Part shown: positions 3,240 through 43,996 of the stretch, piece after piece
Numbering within the stretch: the first letter of the stretch is position 1
Layout of the letters: each line of letters opens with the position of its first letter
Origin: an uncultured Actinomycetota bacterium
GTDB lineage: Bacteria; Actinomycetota; Humimicrobiia; Humimicrobiales; Humimicrobiaceae
DNA length: 49,878 nucleotides
NCBI GenBank assembly: GCA_964558475.1
Contig: CAZLEB010000001.1
Coordinates: forward strand, 1-49,878
Reading direction: 5' to 3'
The notes under the pieces: generated by a model
Databases searched by the model: none
What the model saw: the letters and a program-made list of their open reading frames with translations, nothing else
What the model was told of the DNA's origin: nothing
Translations under genes and position numbers: made by a program

Positions 3240-4580
3240 ATGGGAAAGAAATTCAAAAGAAATTTTGTTTTTGGTATAGCAACATCGTCCTATCAAATAG
3301 AAGGGGCTGCTGCGGAAGATGGAAAAGGTCCTTCCATATGGGATATATTCTGCAAGATTCCTGGAAAAATATATAAAGGACATACCGGTGATATTGCATG
3401 TGATCATTATCATAGATATAAAGAAGATATAAAGTTAATGTCAGATATTGGTATAAATGCATATAGATTTTCAATATCATGGCCCAGGATTTTTCCGAAA
3501 AGGGGTACTTATAATCCAAAAGGAATGGAATTTTATAAAAATTTGGTAAATGAACTTATTGCAAGAAATATAAAACCAGTTGCCGCCCTTTATCATTGGG
3601 ACATGCCGATATGGGTTTATGAGATAGGTGGATGGTTAAAAAGAGATTCGGTTAAGTGGTTCGAAGAATATGCTGCAAAGGTATTTGAAGAACTTAATAC
3701 TTCTGTAAAATTATGGTTAACACACAATGAGCCATATTGCCAGCCAATTTATGGGTATGCGGAAGGAATACACGCTCCAGGACATAAAGACATGAGAGAA
3801 GCTTTGATAGCTGCACATCATATTCTACTTTCTCATGGCGCTGCGGTTGAAACTTTTAGAAAGTATGACTTCAAAAATAGTGAAATTGGAATAACTCTTA
3901 ATTTGATTCCCGCCTATCCTGTATCTGACTCTAAGGAAGATGTAGAAGCGGCTTATAGATCTGATGGCATGTCTAATAGATGGTTTCTGGATCCTATTTT
4001 TAAATCTTCTTATCCCGAGGACATGAAGAAAGTATTTAATAAATTTGTAGGTGAGTTTGATTTTATATGTGATGGAGATTTGGAGAAAATATCAGTTAAA
4101 AATGATTTTCTGGGAGTAAATTATTATGCGAGTGATCTTATTAAGTTTTCCAGGGATTCAAAATTTGGCTTTGAGAATGCCAGGAGCAATTTTGAAAAAA
4201 CTACCATGGGTTGGAACATCTGGCCGGAACCTTTATATAATCTTATAAAAAGACTAAAGCAGGAATATACAGGAATACCGATTTATATTATGGAAAATGG
4301 CGCTGCATTTGATGATATCCTTTCTAGCGGGAAAAGGGTACACGATGTTAAAAGGATAGATTATATTAAAAGGCATTTAATGGAGATTGCCAAACTGAAT
4401 GAACAGGGGGCGGACGTAAGAGGATATTTCATCTGGTCTATAATGGATAATTTTGAATGGCAGCATGGTTATTCCAAAAGATTCGGGATTATTTTTATAG
4501 ATTACAAGACACAGGAGAGGATATTAAAGGACAGTGCAATATGGTATAAGGACTTAATTAGGTATAGGATTATAAAATAA
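3240..4580 (+). CDS. bglA: GH1 beta-glucosidase / 6-phospho-beta-glucosidase family
   Basis: GIATSSYQIEGA, acid/base LTHNEP and nucleophile YIMENG motifs. ATG 3240 is preferred over the listed GTG 3222 because GGAGG (3231-3235) sits 4 nt upstream. Confidence 0.9.
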   Translation: MGKKFKRNFVFGIATSSYQIEGAAAEDGKGPSIWDIFCKIPGKIYKGHTGDIACDHYHRYKEDIKLMSDIGINAYRFSISWPRIFPKRGTYNPKGMEFYKNLVNELIARNIKPVAALYHWDMPIWVYEIGGWLKRDSVKWFEEYAAKVFEELNTSVKLWLTHNEPYCQPIYGYAEGIHAPGHKDMREALIAAHHILLSHGAAVETFRKYDFKNSEIGITLNLIPAYPVSDSKEDVEAAYRSDGMSNRWFLDPIFKSSYPEDMKKVFNKFVGEFDFICDGDLEKISVKNDFLGVNYYASDLIKFSRDSKFGFENARSNFEKTTMGWNIWPEPLYNLIKRLKQEYTGIPIYIMENGAAFDDILSSGKRVHDVKRIDYIKRHLMEIAKLNEQGADVRGYFIWSIMDNFEWQHGYSKRFGIIFIDYKTQERILKDSAIWYKDLIRYRIIK

Positions 4581-4772: not shown

Positions 4773-5573
4773 ATGACAGAAAATACTAAGGAAACAGTAG
4801 TAGTTCAAATTTCTGATATTCATGTTGGGGAAAAGCATTTTGTGCCCAGTCTTCTCACCAGGTGTATTGATGAAATAAATGAACTCTGTCCCGATATAGT
4901 GGTTATAACAGGAGATCTTACTGCCAATGGCTTCAGGATGGAATACGATACTTTAAAGAATTATCTCTCTCCTATAAAGTGTAAAAATCTACTGGTCCAA
5001 TTAGGAAACCATGATTCCAGGAATGTAGGATACCTGCATTTTGAAGACATTTTTGGCAGCAGATATATTTCATTTAGCGGTAGTAATGTGACCATTGTTG
5101 CAGCTGATTCAAGTGAACCTGATCTGGATAACGGACAAATTGGCAGGGAACATTATGAATGGATTAAAAATGAATTCAATAAATGTAATAATGATAATTT
5201 TAAAATCTTTGCCATGCATCACCACTTGATATCAATTCCAAATACAGGTAGGGAAAGGAATATTGTAAATGATGCCGGTGATGTTCTGGAAACCTTAGTT
5301 GATGCCGGAGTGGATATGGTGTTATGTGGACATAAACATGTACCGTATCTATGGAGAGTAGAGGACCTGCTGGTAGTTACTGCCGGGACAGTTTCTTGTC
5401 TTAGATTAAGGGGAAAAATTGAACCAAGTTATAATATTATCTATGTAAGAGAGAAAGAAATCGATATATATAGAAGGTCGCCTTTTGATAAAATAGAAAA
5501 AATTTTAGGTGTAGAAAGAATTGGGAAGAAGAGTAAACTCTGTGATAAGTTTATTAAAGAGAAAAAACAATAA
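4773..5573 (+). CDS. Calcineurin-like metallophosphoesterase (CpdA/YfcE-like)
   Basis: Motifs DIHVG, GDLTANG, GNHD, HHH and GHKH in canonical order. ATG 4773 follows AAAGGGAAAG; the listed TTG 4758 is less likely. Confidence 0.85.
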   Translation: MTENTKETVVVQISDIHVGEKHFVPSLLTRCIDEINELCPDIVVITGDLTANGFRMEYDTLKNYLSPIKCKNLLVQLGNHDSRNVGYLHFEDIFGSRYISFSGSNVTIVAADSSEPDLDNGQIGREHYEWIKNEFNKCNNDNFKIFAMHHHLISIPNTGRERNIVNDAGDVLETLVDAGVDMVLCGHKHVPYLWRVEDLLVVTAGTVSCLRLRGKIEPSYNIIYVREKEIDIYRRSPFDKIEKILGVERIGKKSKLCDKFIKEKKQ

Positions 5574-6921
5574 GGATAAGGATCTGATTGCATTAATAGA
5601 TGGAGAGCATTACCCGCAGGTAACCTATGATGCAATTGCAATGCTTAAAAAAATCTATAAAGGCAATTTTAAGGGCATTGTCTTCCTGGGTGGAACCGAG
5701 AAATTGGCGATAAACAATATCGAGGGTTTTTTCGGCGAGAAGGTTTATAGAATTAAGGATATTGATACGGATTTTAAAGCAGCACTTAAATATTTCAAAC
5801 CTGACGTTGTCTATGATTTAAGTGACGAACCTGTGGTAAATTACGTAATTAGAATGAAAATAGCTTCTTTTTGTCTTGCAAATAAATGCAGTTATATAGG
5901 TCCTGACTTTTTATTTTCTTATGAGAAAGAAAATATACACTGCAGCAAACCCACCATAGCAATTATTGGAACAGGTAAAAGAATTGGCAAAACTGCGGTT
6001 AGTTCTTTTATATCTAAAATATATACTTCTGAGGATGTTAATGTATGTATCATTGCTATGGGAAGGGGAGGACCTAAAAACCCTCAGATTATCAAGGGTA
6101 ATAAAATAAATATTACACCTGAATATCTCCTTGATATCAGTAATAAGGGGATGCATGCAAGTTCGGATTATATAGAAGATGCTCTTACAAGTAAGGTCAC
6201 TGCTGTTGGTTGCAGAAGGTGCGGCGGTGGTTTTGGAGGTAAAGTTTTTATGTCGAACATAAAGGAAGGTATAAGTGTTGCTGAAAAATTAAATCCTGAC
6301 CTAATAATAGTAGAAGGAAGCGGTGCCTCTGTTCCGGATGTAGAAGCAGATGCCACTATCTGTGTAATAGGTGCCGGCCAGAACTGGGAAAATATAATAG
6401 GCTATTTGGGAATTTATAGAATACTATCTTCGGACCTGATAATAATTACAATGTGTGAGAAGCCATTGGCAGATCGGGACAAGATAATTTTTTTAGAAAG
6501 AGAAATAAAAAAGATTAATCCGAAAGCCAGTATTATAAAAACGATTTTTAGACCGGAGCCTTTATCCGATATTAATGGTAAAAAAGTTTTTATAGCTATG
6601 ACCGCCAGTAAAATTGTTGAACCTATTATTAGAGATTACATAGAGAACAATTTTAACTGCAGGGTTATGAAGATGAGTTTTAATCTGGGAAATAGAGAAG
6701 AACTTAGAAAGGACTTAGAAAAAAGTAAGGATTATGACACAATAATGACAGAATTAAAGGCAGCTTCGGTAGATGTTGTAACAGATTATGCTTTTAAACA
6801 TAAAAAAGAAATAATATATATGAATAATATTCCTATAGTAATAGGCGGCAATAAGCTGCTAGAAAAGGAATTAAAAAATATATTCTCAAAGGAGAAAGAT
6901 CAATATGGATTCAAGAGATGA
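5521..6921 (+). CDS. cpgS: Cyclic 2,3-diphosphoglycerate synthetase-like protein
   Basis: About 460 aa. N-terminal LIDGEHYPQV, P-loop IIGTGKRIGKTAV and MGRGGP match my recollection of the archaeal cDPG synthetase family. The start is uncertain: TTG 5521 or GTG 5542, and either overlaps the upstream gene. Confidence 0.65.
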   Translation: MGRRVNSVISLLKRKNNKDKDLIALIDGEHYPQVTYDAIAMLKKIYKGNFKGIVFLGGTEKLAINNIEGFFGEKVYRIKDIDTDFKAALKYFKPDVVYDLSDEPVVNYVIRMKIASFCLANKCSYIGPDFLFSYEKENIHCSKPTIAIIGTGKRIGKTAVSSFISKIYTSEDVNVCIIAMGRGGPKNPQIIKGNKINITPEYLLDISNKGMHASSDYIEDALTSKVTAVGCRRCGGGFGGKVFMSNIKEGISVAEKLNPDLIIVEGSGASVPDVEADATICVIGAGQNWENIIGYLGIYRILSSDLIIITMCEKPLADRDKIIFLEREIKKINPKASIIKTIFRPEPLSDINGKKVFIAMTASKIVEPIIRDYIENNFNCRVMKMSFNLGNREELRKDLEKSKDYDTIMTELKAASVDVVTDYAFKHKKEIIYMNNIPIVIGGNKLLEKELKNIFSKEKDQYGFKR

Positions 6922-7864: not shown

Positions 7865-8293
7865 TTATCTTAAAATATAGAATTTTTCGGAAATTTTATT
7901 ATCTCTATTTAAGTAAACCTTTACGTTATAGCTCCCGGGAGAATAAATACCATTTTTTTTGACCAAAAGGATTATAATCTTTCCTGAACCCTTTTGCTCC
8001 GGTTTTACGGTATTACTCTGGATTATTTCGTTAGAATTATCTTCAATTTTTTCCCATTCGACTTTTATTTCATCTTCAGTGGTAAGGTGCTTTACGTCTA
8101 TTATAAGATAGATATTTGAATCCCGGCTGTTAAAGTAGTCGTGGTTGTCCTGACTTAATTCGTTAAAACTGGAGTCTTTACTGGAACTTAAGTAAATATT
8201 TTCAATATCCGGTTTTTTTTGCAGGGTTGTTATTGAAACTATCGTAAGGATTAAAGTTAAGATAATTATAATTAGTATATTTCTTTTTTTCAT
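7865..8293 (-). CDS. Hypothetical membrane-anchored/secreted small protein
   Basis: N-terminal MKKRN + hydrophobic helix ILIIIILTLILTIVSI. No recognisable catalytic motifs. Convergent with the 2PGK-like gene. Confidence 0.6.
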   Translation of the reverse strand: MKKRNILIIIILTLILTIVSITTLQKKPDIENIYLSSSKDSSFNELSQDNHDYFNSRDSNIYLIIDVKHLTTEDEIKVEWEKIEDNSNEIIQSNTVKPEQKGSGKIIILLVKKNGIYSPGSYNVKVYLNRDNKISEKFYILR

Positions 8294-9000: not shown

Positions 9001-9552
9001 ATGAAAGTGAAAAAAATATATATTACCTCTCTAATTATTTGTTTTTTACTGGTGCCGATAGTTACAGTTTCATGTTTTAATTCTGATGACACCCAGCAAG
9101 GTGAAATTACTCAAGGTAATGAAACTTCAGAAGTAACAAGCGATGGCTCAGAAAATAATCCGGAGGAAGAATTCGATAATCTTCTGGAGAGTGAAGGTTT
9201 TTTAGAAGTTTTAAGTAGTTTTTTTTACCCTGAGTCTGAATTATTAAAAGCGGAGTCAGTAGAAGGTAATGAAAATTTATTCTATATATTATTGGAAATA
9301 ACGGACAATTCTGAAAAAGTGGAAAAATATTATAAGGATAAAAAAGTTCAGTCAATCTGGAGCAGAGCTGTAATATTCGAAGAAAGTTCAGAAAAAGTCG
9401 AAGAAGAATTTGTGACTTCTGAGAATGAAAATATCCCCGTATTTAAATTTACATATTCCAGCAAGGAAAAAGATAAGGTTGTCAATGTCTTAATTAAAGG
9501 TCTGGAAGAAAGCAGAACCCAAATAATGATTATTTACTGGAATCTGCAGTGA
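9001..9552 (+). CDS. Hypothetical acidic lipoprotein/secreted protein
   Basis: Signal peptide ending in lipobox-like VTVSC. The mature part is E/S-rich with no recognisable domain. Confidence 0.6.
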   Translation: MKVKKIYITSLIICFLLVPIVTVSCFNSDDTQQGEITQGNETSEVTSDGSENNPEEEFDNLLESEGFLEVLSSFFYPESELLKAESVEGNENLFYILLEITDNSEKVEKYYKDKKVQSIWSRAVIFEESSEKVEEEFVTSENENIPVFKFTYSSKEKDKVVNVLIKGLEESRTQIMIIYWNLQ

Positions 9553-12917: not shown

Positions 12918-13454
12918 ATGAACTTAAGACTGGCAGAAGAAAAAGAAATTTATAGAAGAAAATCATATCCTCTCTTGTATCTGGTAAAGACACCGGATAG
13001 CGGAAGAGAGGAAGAAAAAATAGTATATAGCAATATTGGTCTGTTTTACATATTTGTTATAGTTATAATTTTTGCCTGTCTGGGAATTCTTTTAAATATC
13101 GGGCTAAAAATACAGAGTGTAAGTTACCAAAAAAATATATATGAAATTGATGAAATGATTTCTTTAGAAGATGAAAGGAGCGACCGCTTACAGCTGAAAA
13201 TATCAGAGCTAAAGTCGCCATCAAGAATTATTGAAACAGCTGAAGAGGATTTAAATATGAATATGGCTGATAATTTTAAGATAGTTGAGATTTCAGATAG
13301 TGGGCTTGAGAATAATGAGAAAATTTATAATTACATATCCAATAATACAAATACCGCAGTTAAAAATTATGACAGTTTCTTAGGAACAATTTATTATATT
13401 CAGGATATAGTGCTTGTGGTATCAGAAAGTGTATTGACATTTTTTATTCCCTAA
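12918..13454 (+). CDS. ftsL: Cell division protein FtsL-like (bitopic, coiled coil)
   Basis: Single TM (IGLFYIFVIVIIFACLGILL) followed by a coiled coil and the SPSRIIETAEEDLNM motif. Sits between rsmH and ftsI. Confidence 0.75.
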   Translation: MNLRLAEEKEIYRRKSYPLLYLVKTPDSGREEEKIVYSNIGLFYIFVIVIIFACLGILLNIGLKIQSVSYQKNIYEIDEMISLEDERSDRLQLKISELKSPSRIIETAEEDLNMNMADNFKIVEISDSGLENNEKIYNYISNNTNTAVKNYDSFLGTIYYIQDIVLVVSESVLTFFIP

Positions 13455-32730: not shown

Positions 32731-32750
32731 TAAAAAAAATGGAGGTAATA

Positions 32751-33707
32751 ATGAATATAAATGCAGAGAACATCCAGAAAAAGGAATTTCATATTGTATT
32801 TAAAGGATACAAACCTGAAGAGGTTGATAAATTTTTAGATATTCTTGCAGTAGAATTTGATAGATTACAGAAATCCCAGAGAGAGCTTCAGGAAAATATG
32901 GAAAAATTGAAATATGAAGGTGATAGAGAATCAGTTGAGATGAAAAGAGTTATCCAGGAAGCGCTTGTATCAGCCCACAAGATTGCGGAGGATATAAAAC
33001 AGAAAGCTGAACAAGAGGCGGAAGAAATGCTAAAAACTAAAGTAGCCGAGGAAGAAGAGTCGTATAAGAGCTTATTAAGTAAGAAAACAAAGTTGGAAAA
33101 AGACATACAGGAACTAAACCAGGAATATGAAGACTTTAAAGCTAAAATTTCTAAGATGATAGATGATTTTAAAGAAACTTCTTCAAAATTAGGGGAAGGG
33201 AAATTTCTCAATATCTCAAGAATTGGCAAGATAGATTTTAATGCTGATAGAGTCAGTATAGATGAAAGTATCAGAAAAGATAAAGAACCGGTATATCCTC
33301 CAGAAGAAGAATTAGAAATATTCGGAGCTGCTAAAAGGAAAGAAGAAGAAGAATCAGGAATGGAAGAAATAGAAGAGAGTAGAGAAGAAGGACCTTTTAA
33401 AGAAGAAGAAAAAAAGTATGGAAAAGAAGAAGAAAAGATGTTTGGAGAAGCAGAAAAGCAGTATGGAGAAGAAGAGGAAAAGCAGTACGGAGAAGAAGAA
33501 AAACAGGATGAAGAAGAGGTAAAGCAGCATGAGGAAGAAGGAGGAGAACAGTACGGAGAAGAAGAGGTAAAGCAGCACGAATTTTATGATGGCTCTGGAG
33601 GAATAGAAGAAAGCGATGATGAATACAAGCCAAAAAGAGTCAAGAAGAAAATAGATATAGCCAATCCAGACATAATTAACGATTTCTTTAAGACTGATGA
33701 AGACTGA
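32751..33707 (+). CDS. divIVA: DivIVA-domain protein with long E/K-rich repetitive tail
   Basis: MNINAENIQKKEFHIVFKGYKPEEVDKFLD is the canonical DivIVA lipid-binding N-terminus. GGAGG (32741-32745) sits 5 nt before ATG 32751, so the listed ATG 32739 is unlikely. Confidence 0.9.
   Translation: MNINAENIQKKEFHIVFKGYKPEEVDKFLDILAVEFDRLQKSQRELQENMEKLKYEGDRESVEMKRVIQEALVSAHKIAEDIKQKAEQEAEEMLKTKVAEEEESYKSLLSKKTKLEKDIQELNQEYEDFKAKISKMIDDFKETSSKLGEGKFLNISRIGKIDFNADRVSIDESIRKDKEPVYPPEEELEIFGAAKRKEEEESGMEEIEESREEGPFKEEEKKYGKEEEKMFGEAEKQYGEEEEKQYGEEEKQDEEEVKQHEEEGGEQYGEEEVKQHEFYDGSGGIEESDDEYKPKRVKKKIDIANPDIINDFFKTDED
33401..33580 (+). repeat. Imperfect tandem 24-nt (8-aa [Y/F]GEEEEKQ-like) coding repeat in the divIVA tail
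   Basis: Exact 20-mer GAAGAAGAGGTAAAGCAGCA at 33510 and 33558. Exact 17-mer CAGTACGGAGAAGAAGA at 33483 and 33549. Confidence 0.85.
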
Positions 33708-33966
33708 AACAATTAAGTTAATTATAAGGCCCAGTTCTACTGTTACCGGTATTTATGGTATTTATAGGAATAGAATAAAAATAAAGCTGGCTGCTGTTCC
33801 CGAAAAAGGAAAAGCTAACAAAGAGCTTATAAAATTCATTTCAGGTAAAATAGGAATTCCTAAAAAAAATATAAAAATTATTGCCGGTGAAAAATCAATT
33901 TATAAAGAGATTAGTATAAAATCAGATGAGGATTTAAATTTAACTTCAAAACTTCTTTCCGGTTAA
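33697..33966 (+). CDS. yggU: DUF167 / YggU-family protein
   Basis: 89 aa with KLAAVPEKGKANKELIKFIS...I.IIAGEKS, the YggU pattern. Overlaps the divIVA stop by 11 nt. Confidence 0.8.
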   Translation: MKTETIKLIIRPSSTVTGIYGIYRNRIKIKLAAVPEKGKANKELIKFISGKIGIPKKNIKIIAGEKSIYKEISIKSDEDLNLTSKLLSG

Positions 33967-33999
33967 GTAAGTTTATAACTATACATATTTTTTCTTACC

Positions 34000-34024
34000 T
34001 TAACATAAATTAACCGAGATTAAC
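34000..34024 (+). promoter_or_regulatory. Three TTAAC direct repeats on an exact 10-bp register (candidate operator)
   Basis: TTAAC at 34000, 34010 and 34020, located 25 bp upstream of a TTGACA -35. Confidence 0.35.
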
Positions 34025-34048
34025 TGTGATATTTACCAAAATAATTGT

Positions 34049-34077
34049 TTGACAATTAAACTTTATAATTTTATTAT
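34049..34077 (+). promoter_or_regulatory. Sigma-70-type promoter upstream of the TadZ-like gene
   Basis: TTGACA (34049-34054), 17-nt spacer, TATTAT (34072-34077). Confidence 0.5.
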
Positions 34078-34214
34078 GTATTTATAAGAAATCTACAATT
34101 ATTGTATGATAATTTGATAATGCTCATATTAAAAAAAATACTGGTTATTTAATTAATTTTAGGGAACAAAAAGAGCAAGACGTAATAATTATTTTAATTA
34201 TTGGTATATAAAAA

Positions 34215-35315
34215 ATGGAAATAATTTTAGTTGTTACCGGAGATAATGAATTAGTCGAAAATATACCTAAAATAAAGCTGCAAAATCATAATATATTGGT
34301 TTTAGGCAATATAAACTACATTAAGCATTATTTAGAAGAATATATGCCAAGATATGTTTTATTATCGGCAAAATTCAAAAATTATAGAGAAGTTGCTGAA
34401 TATATAAACAATTTTACCGGTAGTGAACTTTTTATAACTGATATGACTTCTGACTCTGAGGAGAAAAAGAGCGCTATCTCCAAGAATATATACCTGAGAA
34501 AGATTGAAAATATAACAGAACTGGAAAGAGTGCTGAAAATTATAGATGATTTAAATTTAAAAGAAAATATAAAGAAAGAAGACAGTTATAAATTCATACC
34601 CCAGCAGATAATCTCATTTTATTCAATCCAGGGAGGGGTTGGAAAAACCAGCATCGTTTTTAATTTTTCCTGGTATATGAAAGACATTGTTGAAGGGAAA
34701 ATATTAATCATAGATTTAAATTTTTGCGAGGGCCCATCGGATCTGACTATCAATCTGGGCTTGAACCTATCACCAAATTTAAGTATATTTATCGAAAAGA
34801 TCACCCAGGGAAAAGACTGCTTCAATAAATCTATAATAAATCTAGGCAGTGATAATAAAATAGATATCCTTCAGCCACCTCTGTCTATCTATCAGAGTGA
34901 TAAGTTTAATATTGATATGCTGGACAGCATAATTTATTCTGCCAGAAATGAATATGACATTATAATAGCAGATGTCCCTTTCAGATATGATAATATTTCG
35001 CTGGAGATGTTAAATCTTTCTACTGCTTCGGTTTTAGTACTATCTCCTGATATAAAGCTGGCTCCCCGGGTAAGTAATTTTTTAAAGTTTCTTCCGGGCA
35101 GTCAGAGAAAAGGAATTATTTTTAATAAAGTGAGCCGGGATCAGAAGACATATATAGATGAGTATATGAGTATGTTAGGTATTCCTGTATATGACCGGAT
35201 ATCCTTTATACCGGAAGATGACAGGAGAGTACTGACAAATGGCAGGAATTCTTTTAACATTCTGGATTTACAATCAAAAATGCCTGACCTGGGAAATTTT
35301 ATTTTTAAAAAATGA
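34215..35315 (+). CDS. TadZ/CpaE-like protein: degenerate receiver domain fused to MinD/ParA-family ATPase
   Basis: The N-terminal ~120 aa is CheY-like but lacks the acidic pocket. The C-terminal half has Walker A SIQGGVGKTS, A' ILIIDLNF and Walker B YDIIIADVP. No SD precedes the ATG. Confidence 0.7.
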   Translation: MEIILVVTGDNELVENIPKIKLQNHNILVLGNINYIKHYLEEYMPRYVLLSAKFKNYREVAEYINNFTGSELFITDMTSDSEEKKSAISKNIYLRKIENITELERVLKIIDDLNLKENIKKEDSYKFIPQQIISFYSIQGGVGKTSIVFNFSWYMKDIVEGKILIIDLNFCEGPSDLTINLGLNLSPNLSIFIEKITQGKDCFNKSIINLGSDNKIDILQPPLSIYQSDKFNIDMLDSIIYSARNEYDIIIADVPFRYDNISLEMLNLSTASVLVLSPDIKLAPRVSNFLKFLPGSQRKGIIFNKVSRDQKTYIDEYMSMLGIPVYDRISFIPEDDRRVLTNGRNSFNILDLQSKMPDLGNFIFKK

Positions 35316-35698
35316 GTGAAGAGGAAAAATTATATACTATTAAAGAGGTTTCGGAGCTGGTTGGAATCAGCGAATCAGAGATAATAAGGGCGGTTATGCT
35401 AAGGAAATTACCTGCCATAAGAATGGGTAAAGCTATAAGAATAAAAGAAAATGATCTGGAGATATTCTTAAAGGAATTCATCGGTGAAGAAGATATAAGA
35501 ACCGGCCATAGGGAACCGGTCTTATATACGGCTGAACAGGTTGCAAGAATTTTAAAACTATCGGTTGACAATATATGGAATTTGCTTAAAACGGGGAGGC
35601 TTAAAGGATTTAAAATAAGAGAAGGCAGAAGTTCCTGGAGGATTTCGGCCAGTAATCTGGAAGATTTTATAGAAAGCAGAACCAGGCAGCCAATATGA
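35312..35698 (+). CDS. Tandem excisionase/MerR-type helix-turn-helix DNA-binding protein
   Basis: Two internal repeats, LYTIKEVSELVGISESEI...IRIKENDLEIFL and LYTAEQVARILKLSVDNI...WRISASNLEDFI. ATGA start/stop overlap with the upstream gene. Confidence 0.7.
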   Translation: MSEEEKLYTIKEVSELVGISESEIIRAVMLRKLPAIRMGKAIRIKENDLEIFLKEFIGEEDIRTGHREPVLYTAEQVARILKLSVDNIWNLLKTGRLKGFKIREGRSSWRISASNLEDFIESRTRQPI

Positions 35699-35705
35699 TT
35701 TTTAA

Positions 35706-35870
35706 ATGATGAATGGTGATAAGGAGAAAAACCCCGGACCTACTGTCTGGGAGAAGATAGCAATAGTCATAATTGTCATATTGATAATTATTATAATTCT
35801 ATTAATTTTCAACCAGGAAATTAAAGAATATATTGAAGTCTTTAAGAACTGGTATGAAAGTAAAATTTAA
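35706..35870 (+). CDS. Unannotated 54-aa single-pass membrane micro-protein (candidate)
   Basis: My translation: MMNGDKEKNPGPTVWEKIAIVIIVILIIIIILLIFNQEIKEYIEVFKNWYESKI. Starts 8 nt after the HTH gene stop. Below the ORF-track size cutoff. No clear SD. Confidence 0.4.
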   Translation: MMNGDKEKNPGPTVWEKIAIVIIVILIIIIILLIFNQEIKEYIEVFKNWYESKI

Positions 35871-35911
35871 GTAGCAATATTAATGATTTATATTTTTAGG
35901 AGGTGAAAATA

Positions 35912-35983
35912 ATGAAAAAGTTAATAAGAATTTTACTGGTGCTGGGCTCCTTAATCGGAATAGCTTCTTGGATTAGATGGTAA
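35912..35983 (+). CDS. Unannotated 23-aa hydrophobic micro-ORF (candidate)
   Basis: MKKLIRILLVLGSLIGIASWIRW, preceded by a near-perfect SD AGGAGGTGA (35899-35907) 4 nt upstream of the ATG. Confidence 0.45.
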   Translation: MKKLIRILLVLGSLIGIASWIRW

Positions 35984-36012
35984 AATTCATGTTATAATAA
36001 ATCAATATTTTT

Positions 36013-36021
36013 TGATATAAT
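36013..36021 (+). promoter_or_regulatory. Extended -10 element TGaTATAAT upstream of the HD-GYP gene
   Basis: TG-n-TATAAT lies 36 nt upstream of GTG 36057. Confidence 0.4.
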
Positions 36022-36056
36022 GCTCTATATTTTTGTAAATAGAGGCTAAAAAACTG

Positions 36057-37310
36057 GTGAAAAAGAATAGTAATCAGGTGTTAGGGGTATATGTATTTTT
36101 TATATTCTTAATTGGTTTGTCTATATTTACATATATTCTTATAAAGTATAGAGGCATATCAATTATTGGAGTAGTGCTGTTCGGATTATCAGCTTTTATG
36201 GGTGATAATCTATCGGCGCCGCTTCCAAGAACAGGAAGTGTTTCGGTAAATCTTGCAATCTTTCTAGTAAGCTTAATGCTCTTTGGTCCTTCCACAGCCA
36301 TTTTAGTTACAGCAATTTCTTTTTTTAACATCAGAGAGTTTGTTAAAAAAGTTCCTTATTATAAGCACCTTTTTAATGCCGGACAATATTTTATTTCAAT
36401 TGGTATTGCCAGTATTATATTTGAAGAAATTTATAATAGGGATGTAACTAAATTTTTTAGTATAGCAAATATTAGCGTAATTGTTTTATCTGCATTTATA
36501 TGCTTTTTCCTAAATACATTATTAAATACAGGGGCTATTTCTATCAGTGAAAATAAAAATTTTATAAATACATGGATTTACAATTTTGCATGGATAATCC
36601 CTTTTCATATATTTTTAGCTGCTATGTCAATTGCAATATCTTTTATTTATAGATTGTATGGACCTTTTACAATTATATTTACTTCTCTTCCTTTAATAAT
36701 TGCTCAATATACCTACATGCTGAGAATAAAGGAGAGAAAGGCACTTTTAAACAGTATTATGCAGATTGTAAAGATAATAGATGCAAAAGATTCGTATACT
36801 GCGGGTCATTCGGTAAGGGTAGCGGAATATGCCGAAAAGATTGCCAGAAAGTTAAGACTCAGTGAATATGATGTTGAAGTATTAACCAATCTTGCAAATC
36901 TGCATGATATAGGTAAGGTACAGATTGATTTAAGTATACTTAACAAGCCGGGGAAGTTTGATGATGCCGACTGGGTAGAGATGAAGAAGCACCCGGAAGT
37001 GGGTTATAAAATAGTAAAAGAAATCGTCTTTTTAAAAAATTATGCTGAGGCAATTCTCTATCACCATGAAAAAATAGATGGAAAAGGGTACCCACATGGG
37101 ATCAAGGGAGACAGAATACCTTTGTTTGCCAAAATACTAACTGTAGCAGATGCCTATGATGCAATGACCTCCGACAGGCCTTACAGGCAGGCACTCACTC
37201 AAAAAAAAGCAATAAAGGAATTAGAAAAATGTGCCGGTGAAAGTTTTGACAGGAGAATCAGCAATATAATGATTGAGATTATTAAAGAGGAAAGCCTGAC
37301 CAGGTGTTAA
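36057..37310 (+). CDS. Membrane-integral HD-GYP domain phosphodiesterase (cyclic-di-GMP type)
   Basis: About 220 aa of multi-TM N-terminus, then HD (NLHDIGK) and HHEKIDGKGYP. GTG start. Confidence 0.85.
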   Translation: MKKNSNQVLGVYVFFIFLIGLSIFTYILIKYRGISIIGVVLFGLSAFMGDNLSAPLPRTGSVSVNLAIFLVSLMLFGPSTAILVTAISFFNIREFVKKVPYYKHLFNAGQYFISIGIASIIFEEIYNRDVTKFFSIANISVIVLSAFICFFLNTLLNTGAISISENKNFINTWIYNFAWIIPFHIFLAAMSIAISFIYRLYGPFTIIFTSLPLIIAQYTYMLRIKERKALLNSIMQIVKIIDAKDSYTAGHSVRVAEYAEKIARKLRLSEYDVEVLTNLANLHDIGKVQIDLSILNKPGKFDDADWVEMKKHPEVGYKIVKEIVFLKNYAEAILYHHEKIDGKGYPHGIKGDRIPLFAKILTVADAYDAMTSDRPYRQALTQKKAIKELEKCAGESFDRRISNIMIEIIKEESLTRC

Positions 37311-37819
37311 AACAGTATTTTTTAATTTTTCTAAAAAGCCTGCTTATTTTTCTGGCAGGAGCTGCCATAGGTTTTGTATTTTTTTATTTCTTTAAAGGTG
37401 CCAGTGTATTCATAACAGACAAATTCAAAGTACTTCAGGGTATTTTTGGAATACACGAGTATCAGCAAGGAATGTCTTTTAATTATGTTTTTCTGGCTAT
37501 TTTTTTTGGAAATCTTCTTTCAACTATTGGATATTTTACCCTTGGTTTTTTAAAAGCTTCGCTTCCCGTAAGTTTTATTACCGGTATATTTATGATTATT
37601 TTTCTTTTCACGGGGACCATAAGACATGGTGCTTCCATTCCCGGTGAAGTTATAATACTTTCTTCTATTGAGATGTTTTATCGTGTTATGGCTTTAACCA
37701 CCGGGGAATATATAAACAGAAACAGGTTTAAAAATAAAACTATTCCTATAGTTTCTATAGTTATTATTTTTATTCTGTTTATTTCGGCAGTTTTTTATGA
37801 GTTATACCAGCTTTTTTAA
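37304..37819 (+). CDS. Integral membrane protein (possibly SpoIIM/DUF95-like), function unknown
   Basis: Four to five hydrophobic segments. GTG start overlaps the HD-GYP stop (GTGTTAA). The family assignment is weak. Confidence 0.55.
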   Translation: MLKQYFLIFLKSLLIFLAGAAIGFVFFYFFKGASVFITDKFKVLQGIFGIHEYQQGMSFNYVFLAIFFGNLLSTIGYFTLGFLKASLPVSFITGIFMIIFLFTGTIRHGASIPGEVIILSSIEMFYRVMALTTGEYINRNRFKNKTIPIVSIVIIFILFISAVFYELYQLF

Positions 37820-43144: not shown

Positions 43145-43363
43145 TTCTTTTTATCCCGGTAAATATGACTTAAGATGCCCGCTACCCTTAATGATTAATA
43201 AATACTATATTTTATTTGACTATTTTCAGCAATAATTGTTTTAAAAAATTTTTTCTATAGAAAGTTTCATTTTTACCGTATCCGGATTTATTGACTTTTT
43301 ATTTTGCCTATTATAATCTTTAAATGTTTCTTATCCATTAAAAATTTTAAGGGGGGGTATCCA

Positions 43364-43996
43364 ATGAATATATTTAACAAAATAGTTGTTGTATTGATAT
43401 TAATCTTTTTGGCCTGTCTCTCGATTATTTCTATGGTAAATATTTTTGCGGAATATTTTAAATGGTCGGACCTGGCTTTGAGAATTTTCACTCCGGAATA
43501 CAATATTAGTAAATTTGTTGTTTTTCTTGCTTTACTGGGTATATTTGCCGTAAGTATTCTTTTAATGTTACTGGAATTTTATAGAAAAAGGACAAAAGTG
43601 GCAAATATATCCAGCTCTAAAACAGGAAATGCCATGGTAACGCTGGAAACTATCGCAGGGCAGATAAAAAATGAGGTAATTAAAATAGATGGTCTGGAAG
43701 AAATCAAGGTAAATATAATTCCAAAAACAGCAGGTATTATAATTAATATGAACGCTAAATTAAACGATAATGTGAATATCCCGGAAAAGATGCAGGAAAT
43801 AATAAATGTAGCTAGCGGTATAGTATCGGACAAACTGGGTATTAAAGTTATAAAGACCAATCTTACTATTATTGGTCTTGTTGAAGGAAAAAAGGAAAAA
43901 GAGGTAAAGAAAAAAGAGATTGAAAAAAAGCCGGTTAAAACAAAACCGGAAGAAGCTGAAGATATTTCCGAAACTTCCGATGATAATAGTAGTTAA
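43364..43996 (+). CDS. Membrane protein, possibly Asp23-anchor (AmaP)-like, with K/E-rich tail
   Basis: Two N-terminal TM segments, then a beta-rich segment (MVTLETIAGQIKNEV...KVNI...) resembling the Asp23/AmaP family. ATG 43364 follows GGGGGGG and is preferred to the listed 43304. Confidence 0.5.
   Translation: MNIFNKIVVVLILIFLACLSIISMVNIFAEYFKWSDLALRIFTPEYNISKFVVFLALLGIFAVSILLMLLEFYRKRTKVANISSSKTGNAMVTLETIAGQIKNEVIKIDGLEEIKVNIIPKTAGIIINMNAKLNDNVNIPEKMQEIINVASGIVSDKLGIKVIKTNLTIIGLVEGKKEKEVKKKEIEKKPVKTKPEEAEDISETSDDNSS

Follow-up and report, generated by a model that had tools for sequence, protein, structure and literature searches.

TadZ/CpaE proteins are pole-localising MinD-like ATPases that are needed for assembly of the Tad secretion apparatus (PMC11407121), and their atypical receiver domain is thought to mediate polar protein contacts (bioRxiv 10.64898/2026.07.08.737194); the one role in which they have so far been understood is that of targeting Tad pili to the pole. 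We found no description of a TadZ protein paired with a tandem winged-helix protein, the nearest report being a genetic one from Micrococcus luteus, in which cpaB-tadZ/cpaE have, away from the tad clusters, an HTH_17 (helix-turn-helix) gene as neighbour; comEA/EC are derepressed by point mutations of this HTH_17 gene, the gene could not be deleted, and knockout of cpaB lowers transformability 10^4-fold (PMC8467076). The DNA considered here, called the window throughout, is a stretch of 49,878 nt from an uncultured actinobacterium of the Humimicrobiaceae (GenBank assembly GCA_964558475.1, contig CAZLEB010000001.1, positions 1 to 49,878 of the forward strand). Behind its divIVA and yggU genes it carries three genes, for a TadZ-like ATPase, a tandem winged-helix DNA-binding protein (HTH) and a 54-aa protein with a single transmembrane (TM) helix (TM54). 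The best-supported description of this trio is that it is centred on HTH, a highly constrained protein, with a TadZ-like scaffold and a small membrane protein beside it, and with confidence a little above even we read it as a piece that has come away from a Tad (Flp) pilus locus of the comM/dprA-adjacent type and is now fixed behind divIVA-yggU, with cpaB-cpaF-tadB-tadC not alongside.

The source names of homologues put the window in Candidatus Humimicrobiia, a basal, uncultured, low-GC class of Actinomycetota. When each GTDB species was represented by one genome, a scan yielded 48 loci of the type seen in the window. The order divIVA-yggU-ATPase-HTH-TM54 occurs in every one of these whose contig extends far enough. 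ATPase, HTH and TM54 follow one another in 43-44 of the 48 without a counter-example, the rest being cut off by contig ends, and this recurrence is no matter of chance; TM54 was found after HTH in 43, and in the other five either the contig ends first (four loci) or an assembly gap interrupts the gene (L035). The space between yggU and the ATPase gene varies from 0 to 435 bp (248 bp in the window) and is 50 bp or less in six species loci, in which the module is likely to share a transcript with divIVA-yggU. In the window the ATPase stop and the HTH start have four bases in common (ATGA, 35312-35315) and the two genes are translationally coupled. Much of an earlier note on this DNA (the original prediction) was borne out here: all four of its open reading frames (ORFs) are present, the ATGA overlap was seen, its spacing of about 250 bp after divIVA-yggU agrees with the measured one, and both of its micro-ORFs are real, the 54-aa ORF being conserved and the 23-aa ORF conserved as a peptide. 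Its gene order of ATPase, HTH and micro-ORF also holds in relatives, in that the 54-aa ORF goes strictly together with ATPase and HTH at this place after divIVA-yggU. The Pfam run on the window took in all ORFs of at least 90 aa, except for antisense ones that overlap others and for the stretch at the truncated 3' end (47.6-49.9 kb), and this run together with phmmer searches using six Tad proteins found no Tad or Min gene in the 50 kb, as had been predicted. MinC, MinE and ParB were likewise missing from the Pfam results and no second MinD/ParA was found in the window. Within 10 kb either side of the module no Tad protein was matched in any of the 48 species loci.

The evidence for a pilus ancestry comes from distant homologues. 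Two loci from the same species scan (L057 and L058; 22-25% identity, about 48% GC, not near divIVA) have an ATPase gene directly followed by the gene for a tandem HTH_17 protein, and in L057 these stand in the order comM-dprA-Memo-TadE-ATPase-HTH-CpaB-CpaF-TadB-TadC-(Flp)-...-TadG. A search with the CpaF protein of L057 produced three further loci of the same order (L066, L067 and L069), and a metagenome scan with a single HTH sequence as query gave one good locus (L059), which like L058 is a partial version with TadE upstream. The full order in L057, L066, L067 and L069 is (yraN)-comM-dprA-Memo-TadE-TadZ-like-tandem HTH_17-CpaB-CpaF-TadB-TadC-Flp, the last being, in L066, L067 and L069, a small Flp-like gene (RG|SEITEQ...) 3' of tadC. 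Because the Humimicrobiia ATPases are matched by the L057 TadZ at 1e-28 to 1e-32 and the Humimicrobiia HTH proteins by its HTH counterpart at about 1e-12, and because motifs such as IDLNF(C/S)EGPSD and GFK/RxxxGxxSWR are held in common, homology of the ATPase and HTH to the TadZ-HTH pair inside complete Tad loci is, as judged from sequence, solid. The L057-type order minus cpaB-cpaF-tadB-tadC is TadZ-HTH-small TM protein, as in the window. The original prediction had held that the module is not a pilus component, and had named orthologues consistently embedded in complete tad loci as what would count against it. Part of this is the case, and for ancestry the claim does not stand: distant homologues of ATPase and tandem HTH, of 22-25% identity, are neighbours in five Tad loci that have the motor genes and in two partial loci beside TadE. 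The Humimicrobiia module has no Tad genes within 10 kb, and orthologues from this class (at least 38% identity) are never inside Tad loci.

Some further features of the Tad-associated loci were recorded. In L059 (11141-18738) a complete chemosensory cluster (CheW, CheW, a CheA-CheY hybrid, a methyl-accepting chemotaxis protein, CheB and CheR-TPR) comes directly after TadE-TadZ-HTH, where CpaB-CpaF sit elsewhere. A second type of Tad locus in the same short-CpaF clade (L068 6605-11195 and L070 156-4747) has CpaB, then a short (248-255 aa) MinD-like ATPase without receiver domain or HTH, then CpaF-TadB-TadC-Flp; L068 and L059 have the same assembly accession. Tad-embedded HTH proteins carry a conserved N-terminal extension of about 28 aa, M..(K/R)KKDDLRSLIKE(L/I)E (L057 11213-11300, L058 2480-2570, L067 6879-6970), which is missing from the Humimicrobiia proteins and from L066 and which might be a TadZ-contacting peptide.

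For the ATPase, sequence profiles alone gave weak MinD/ParA matches (Pfam AAA_31 at 7.7e-8, with CbiA just below the cut-off). An AlphaFold2 (AF2) model built on 25 homologues (predicted local distance difference test, pLDDT, 82) has a (beta-alpha)5 receiver-like domain joined by a disordered linker (residues 115-128) to a MinD/ParA domain. Foldseek with this model returned 3EA0 as the top match (TM 0.73) and TadZ 3FKQ as the full-length one (361 columns), and a profile search of PDB sequences also put 3EA0 first (1.4e-16); the TadZ/CpaE architecture is therefore real, as originally proposed, and so is its lack of phospho-acceptor chemistry. Pfam Response_reg does not match the N-terminal domain, and the position of the phospho-acceptor Asp is taken by Ser52, where L057 and L058 have the receiver Asp in the alignment; the Tad-embedded ATPases match the receiver family weakly. 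In one Candidatus Humimicrobiales genome (L056 9989-10720) the ATPase is without the whole receiver-like N-domain, being a protein of 243 aa whose sequence begins at the Walker A region and whose gene adjoins the yggU stop directly, with a 313-bp gap between the ATPase and HTH genes.

The nucleotide-binding site departs from those of both MinD/ParA and TadZ proteins. Over the 25 homologues Q139, D167, N169 and D253 are invariant and K144 nearly so; the canonical P-loop Lys (Lys144) is thus retained, while Gln139 stands at the signature Lys of the deviant Walker A, and the motif KGGxxGK[ST] is absent. Nor does the site, Q-G-G-V-G-K-T, conform to the Walker A-like consensus of TadZ, K/RGGXGXS/T (bioRxiv 10.64898/2026.07.08.737194). 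The Tad-embedded homologues L057, L058, L066 and L067 keep K-G-G-x-G-R-T. N169 aligns with the second Asp of the 'DxD' (MinD D40) in archaeal and Aquifex MinD; Asn is found at this position in the Tad-embedded homologues too, and 3EA0, with Ser, is likewise without the Asp. The catalytic Asp in the DxD/Walker A' region of MinD/ParA proteins is D40 in MinD, D44 in Soj and D38 in McdA. PDB titles name McdA D38A and Helicobacter pylori Soj D41A in structures of ATP-bound or mutant complexes, and we take McdA D38 and H. pylori Soj D41 to be equivalent to the N169 position. By what is established for ParA/MinD ATPases, loss of the signature Lys and the catalytic Asp would be expected to leave nucleotide binding with little hydrolysis. 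Because Gln139 replaces the one and Asn169 the other, the ATPase is probably an ATP-binding, hydrolysis-poor scaffold or switch and not a patterning ATPase of the Min/Par type.

HTH is the most constrained part of the module. In agreement with the tandem excisionase/MerR-like HTH first proposed, Pfam HTH_17 matches it twice (2e-23), as does the NCBIfam family 'excise' (TIGR01764), and the AF2 secondary structure is b-a-a-b-b-a two times over. The AF2 model is a single-sequence one of low confidence (pLDDT 67), and its Foldseek matches are indicative only: the best full-length match is TraN 4P0Y (E 4e-4, root-mean-square deviation (rmsd) ~13 A), the single units match BldC (6AMA/6AMK) and the Pukovnik Xis (4J2N) with TM 0.77-0.83 and rmsd of about 1.3-1.4 A, and RacA is also among the matches. 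At the sequence level HTH matches BldC/Xis proteins at family level only (E 0.007-0.3). The winged-helix fold of Xis proper is present twice, yet there is no recombinase gene in the window or flanks; in a library-wide search the tandem-HTH family was small, amounting to just a few clusters at the 50% identity level. Over about 45 species HTH has a median identity of 75% to its counterpart in the window, against 81% for FtsZ, 61% for the ATPase, 61% for SepF and 47% for DivIVA, which is the least conserved protein of the region. In the deepest lineages HTH (69-80%) keeps pace with FtsZ (71-77%) while the ATPase falls to 39-47%, and for this reason we regard HTH, conserved at FtsZ level, as the core of the module; it is under strong purifying selection.

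The sigma-70-type promoter upstream of the ATPase gene matches the consensus at 11 of 12 positions, and the pattern TTGACA-17-TAnnnT (mostly TAT(T/C)AT) is kept in 30/30 related loci in which the yggU-ATPase gap is at least 200 bp. Just 5' of its -35 box lie three direct repeats of TTAAC spaced by 10 bp. The arrangement TTAAC-N5-TTAAC has two overlapping matches here and is found nowhere else in the window (0.27 expected). An exact 5-mer repeated at 10 or 11 bp within 45 nt 5' of the -35 box was found in 17/30 related loci, which are phylogenetically non-independent, against 3.2 +/- 1.7 in shuffles, and the repeated 5-mers are mostly (T)TAAC/TTAGC/AACC(T). BldC and the excisionases bind direct repeats head to tail, with which the phased TTAAC repeats fit, and we consider these repeats a candidate operator for HTH as a binder of the same kind. 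An Rfam scan of 33600-36300 gave no credible RNA family (one sub-threshold snoRNA match).

The N-terminal motif of TM54 resembles a prepilin signal (G|FTLIE, or the Flp form G|xxxxEY). Numbered from the would-be cleavage site, the 41 unique sequences have G at -1 in 16/41, L/F at +1 in 40/41, T at +2 in 35/41, and E at +5 and K at +6 in all 41; Gly is thus missing at -1 in 25/41, and K takes the +6 position where the class III Flp signal has Y. After the motif comes the TM helix, and after this an amphipathic C-terminal stretch that is likewise conserved, EY(I/L)xxFKxWY. Alignment of TM54 by hhalign with four Flp proteins of complete Tad loci put the conserved Glu in register but gave a probability of no more than 0.6%. 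With E values up to 10 admitted, no Pfam pilin family matched TM54, save a sub-threshold Flp1_like in one member, and none matched the Flp-like proteins of the complete Tad loci either.

In our judgement the odds are slightly in favour of loss of the cognate pilus motor, with the trio now in a regulatory or anchoring role. Signs of lost pilus features are the absence of Tad motor genes within 10 kb or in the window, Gln139, the loss of the -1 Gly of TM54 in 25/41 and the loss of the receiver-like domain in L056. In the mechanism that we propose the tandem winged helices would bind direct repeats one helical turn apart, those of their own promoter included, and HTH would be a regulator or an anchor on DNA in the manner of TraN or BldC. 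The ATPase would bind ATP and barely hydrolyse it, serving as a dimeric scaffold or switch and not as a patterning motor; its receiver-like domain would dock on a cell-pole landmark, as in TadZ, for which DivIVA is the obvious candidate, and TM54 would tie the complex to the membrane. Several points weigh against this account. The absence of the Tad motor holds for the window and for 10 kb on each side of the module, and a motor may be encoded elsewhere in the genome; the split arrangement of M. luteus exists and works. That HTH binds the repeats, that the ATPase binds ATP without hydrolysing it and that there is contact with DivIVA are steps that we infer; the HTH structure is a single-sequence model of pLDDT 67; and a pilin-like TM54 is without statistical support from hhalign or Pfam. 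Synteny of the whole region is also high within the class, so the adjacency to divIVA may be a historical accident rather than a functional coupling.

The alternative that survives best is a split but working Tad (competence) pilus, in which the ATPase is a genuine TadZ, HTH its regulator and TM54 a pilin, with motor, platform and peptidase elsewhere in the genome. The M. luteus genes set a precedent, since tadZ/cpaE, cpaB and HTH_17 lie outside the tad clusters in that organism and are yet needed for transformation (PMC8467076). L059 and L068, with TadE-TadZ-HTH before the che cluster in the one and CpaB-MinD-like-CpaF-TadB-TadC-Flp in the other, may be such a split locus in one assembly, and 16/41 TM54 sequences keep the pattern G-(L/F)-T-x-x-E. 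The remaining 25, without the -1 Gly, do not suit a pilin; Gln139 breaks the TadZ Walker A consensus, the L056 ATPase has dispensed with its receiver-like domain, and none of the 48 species has a Tad gene within 10 kb. The CpaF query from L057 defined a distinct short-CpaF clade of 27 clusters, none of Humimicrobiia-like low-GC amino-acid composition among the 120 matches listed, whereas the Humimicrobiia ATPase is represented by 125 clusters in that database; the lack of a low-GC member among these matches is weak negative evidence that points to loss of the motor. On balance we consider a split, working pilus unlikely, albeit a serious contender.

Doubtful, in our opinion, is a bolder form of the detached-piece reading, namely that the trio is a repurposed pilus relic linking DivIVA-marked poles or septa to the chromosome, with a non-hydrolysing scaffold held on DivIVA by its receiver-like domain, the winged helices on the phased repeats, and TM54 in the membrane. 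If true, the relic would provide a RacA-like or nucleoid-occlusion-like function in a basal actinobacterial class with no Min genes in the region examined.

The original prediction itself was of a self-contained ParA/MinD positioning module, for division site or nucleoid, in a lineage without MinCDE. Several observations favour it: the module keeps its place behind divIVA, six species loci having almost no gap, there is no min gene or second ParA in the window, and ATPase, DNA binder and membrane protein are strictly co-conserved. In other Gram-positive bacteria DivIVA recruits ParA/MinD-type ATPases as well as the winged-helix protein RacA, which is among the Foldseek matches of HTH. Against this, the nearest relatives of the ATPase are TadZ proteins of pilus loci and not Min or Par proteins, and the 23-aa peptide taken for a membrane tether travels with the HD-GYP cassette described below. 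The ATPase also evolves fast (39-47% identity in the deep lineages) and HTH does not, which suggests that HTH carries the core function. A positioning mechanism of ParA/MinD style is made unlikely by the cycling residues, with the signature Lys replaced by Gln (Q139) and the catalytic Asp (MinD D40) by Asn (N169), both invariantly. We therefore rate the module as first proposed as improbable, while a division- or pole-related role of some kind is possible given the fixed place behind divIVA and the near-zero gap in several lineages.

That the trio is the remnant of a mobile element (an excisionase and a ParA partition ATPase of a plasmid, phage or integrative and conjugative element) is effectively refuted, and was rejected together with a defence role, since PHROGs and PADLOC gave only generic family matches (excisionase, ParA-like, mad1-HTH), no integrase or recombinase lies in the window or flanks, the chromosomal position is identical across the whole class, HTH is under strong purifying selection, and the GC fraction dips only a little at the module (0.277 in the 34001-35000 bin, the flanks having about 0.30-0.35).

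The coordinates of the module and its neighbours are collected in Table 1. Downstream of TM54 the 23-aa peptide gene has a Shine-Dalgarno (SD) sequence, AGGAGGTG (35898-35905), six bases 5' of its ATG, and a consensus of M(K/R)KLxR(I/V)LxxL(G/A)SL(I/V)GI(A/C)xxV(R/K)W. It occurs in one to three tandem copies, each with a GGAGGTG SD and differing by synonymous changes only (copies or relatives in the window, in L008 at 3257-3554 and in L012, L044, L049, L050 and L053). The peptide is found in 22/23 loci with an HD-GYP gene and in 0/14 without, and for this reason it is assigned to an accessory HD-GYP cassette rather than the ATPase module; as a small protein it may modulate the MASE9 sensor. 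A TG(G/A)TATAAT box followed by GCTCTATATTT is conserved 5' of the HD-GYP gene in many species, and this extended -10 box indicates, on sequence grounds, a promoter of the cassette's own. The cassette is present in 23 related loci (five being duplicate records) and missing from 14 of the 37 in which the sequence runs on for more than 2 kb past the 54-aa ORF; the HD-GYP protein was accordingly ruled out as part of the module. The HD-GYP and membrane protein genes named in the original prediction are thus where they were said to be, the first with MASE9 and HD_5 domains, the second encoding 171 aa. Two ideas of that prediction did not hold up: cyclic di-GMP control fails as a core feature with the 14 loci that have no HD-GYP gene, and the 23-aa peptide as a tether of the ATPase fails with its co-variation with the cassette.

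Table 1. Features of the trio and its surroundings in the window
Feature	Position	Strand	Remarks
divIVA	32739-33707	+	Pfam DivIVA; tail of dcw cluster
yggU	33697-33966	+	Pfam DUF167; with divIVA, invariant upstream neighbour
Three TTAAC direct repeats	34000-34024	+	10-bp spacing, just 5' of -35 box; candidate operator
Promoter, sigma-70 type	34049-34077	+	TTGACA-17 nt-TATTAT; 11/12 consensus positions
ATPase ORF (TadZ-like)	34215-35315	+	366 aa
Receiver-like (atypical receiver) domain	34215-34553	+	Residues 1-113; AF2 fold; inside full-length 3FKQ match
MinD/ParA-fold ATPase domain	34605-35315	+	Residues 131-366; Pfam, PDB profile search, Foldseek
Walker A	34623-34652	+	S-I-Q-G-G-V-G-K-T-S; within ATPase domain
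HTH ORF	35312-35698	+	128 aa; start overlaps ATPase stop
Tandem Xis/MerR-type winged-helix protein	35312-35698	+	Unit 1 residues 7-57, unit 2 residues 71-124
TM54 ORF	35706-35870	+	54 aa, single TM
SD and 23-aa hydrophobic peptide gene (MKKLIRILLVLGSLIGIASWIRW)	35898-35983	+	Belongs to HD-GYP cassette
Short hydrophobic ORF	35903-35983	+	26 aa from GTG, or 23 aa from ATG at 35912
Accessory cassette	36013-37819	+	Extended -10, HD-GYP gene, membrane protein
Extended -10 box TGATATAAT	36013-36021	+	Between 23-aa peptide ORF and HD-GYP start
MASE9-HD-GYP phosphodiesterase	36057-37310	+	Pfam MASE9, HD_5, HD
171-aa membrane protein	37304-37819	+	3' of HD-GYP gene

Upstream the window holds a complete dcw cluster (mraZ, rsmH, ftsI, murE, murF, mraY, murD, ftsW, murG, murC, murB, ddl, ftsQ, ftsA, ftsZ, yfiH, yggS, sepF, proC, yggT, divIVA, yggU), and the other large ORFs are housekeeping genes. 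The C-terminal half of the window's divIVA (33350-33640) encodes a long acidic repetitive tail rich in E, K, Q, Y and G (EEEKQYGEEE...). Five sizeable ORFs had no Pfam match at the thresholds used (5521-6921, 7865-8293 on the minus strand, 9001-9552, 12918-13454 and 43304-43996), of which 12918-13454 is, judged by position, probably an ftsL-like gene of the dcw cluster.

Some actinobacterial lineages thus have a TadZ with a dedicated tandem winged-helix partner inside a pilus locus, and throughout a whole class this pair is retained, along with a small membrane protein, beside the division cluster with no pilus motor nearby. This offers a concrete case of how the localisation factor of a secretion machine and its regulator are retained or re-used, and it suggests a testable link between DivIVA and the receiver-like domain of TadZ type in Gram-positive bacteria. 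Should motor genes exist elsewhere in these genomes, the finding would reduce to an unusual split tad locus.

Among described systems the TadZ/CpaE proteins (Eubacterium rectale 3FKQ, Chlorobium tepidum 3EA0, Aggregatibacter TadZ and Caulobacter CpaE) are the closest by structure and profile, having the same atypical receiver and MinD/ParA fold, and the distant homologues of the module lie within complete tad loci. The window ATPase differs from them in that the first residue of its Walker A is Gln and not K/R (the canonical P-loop Lys being kept), in the loss of the receiver-like domain in one lineage of its family, and in its place, always behind divIVA-yggU and without tad genes within 10 kb in 48 species; adjacency to cpaF/tadA and tadB/tadC is absent at the module and present in L057, L066, L067 and L069. 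The mycobacterial Ssd protein (Rv3660c; TIGR03815, CpaE_hom_Actino) is also an actinobacterial CpaE-like ATPase and has been linked to septation; its gene adjoins TadA and TadB/C homologues, and the NCBIfam scan gave no TIGR03815 match for the window ATPase at E < 0.1. With MinD/ParA systems and DivIVA-dependent anchoring (MinCDJ, Soj-Spo0J and RacA of Bacillus) the module has in common a P-loop fold, a DNA-binding partner, a membrane component and a divIVA neighbour. It differs from them in having both signature Lys and catalytic Asp replaced, no MinC, MinE or ParB-like partner in the window, and pilus TadZ proteins as the nearest relatives of its ATPase.

On the side of HTH, the top full-length structural match, TraN of the Enterococcus pIP501 type IV secretion system (4P0Y/4PM3), is a binder of double-stranded DNA of about 120 aa with two tandem Xis/MerR-like winged helices, encoded in a secretion-machine gene cluster. 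Unlike HTH it has no MinD-like ATPase partner, and the two have no detectable sequence relationship, the match coming from a model of pLDDT 67 with a large rmsd. BldC of Streptomyces (6AMA/6AMK), the Pukovnik Xis (4J2N) and Tn916 Xis (1Y6U) have the same winged-helix unit, of which the window protein fuses two in one chain, and no recombinase is nearby. The M. luteus locus (Mlut_14660, HTH_17; Mlut_14650, CpaB; Mlut_14640, TadZ/CpaE) is likened to ours by gene pairing and not by sequence orthology. It is divergently transcribed, has cpaB and a PAS kinase in the operon, has neither a divIVA context nor a 54-aa membrane protein, and its HTH is reported as a small HTH_17 protein without mention of a tandem repeat. 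What the two loci have in common is the actinobacterial pairing of an excisionase-family HTH_17 protein with tadZ/cpaE, the position of that pair away from tad motor clusters, and an HTH that appears to be an essential, highly constrained partner.

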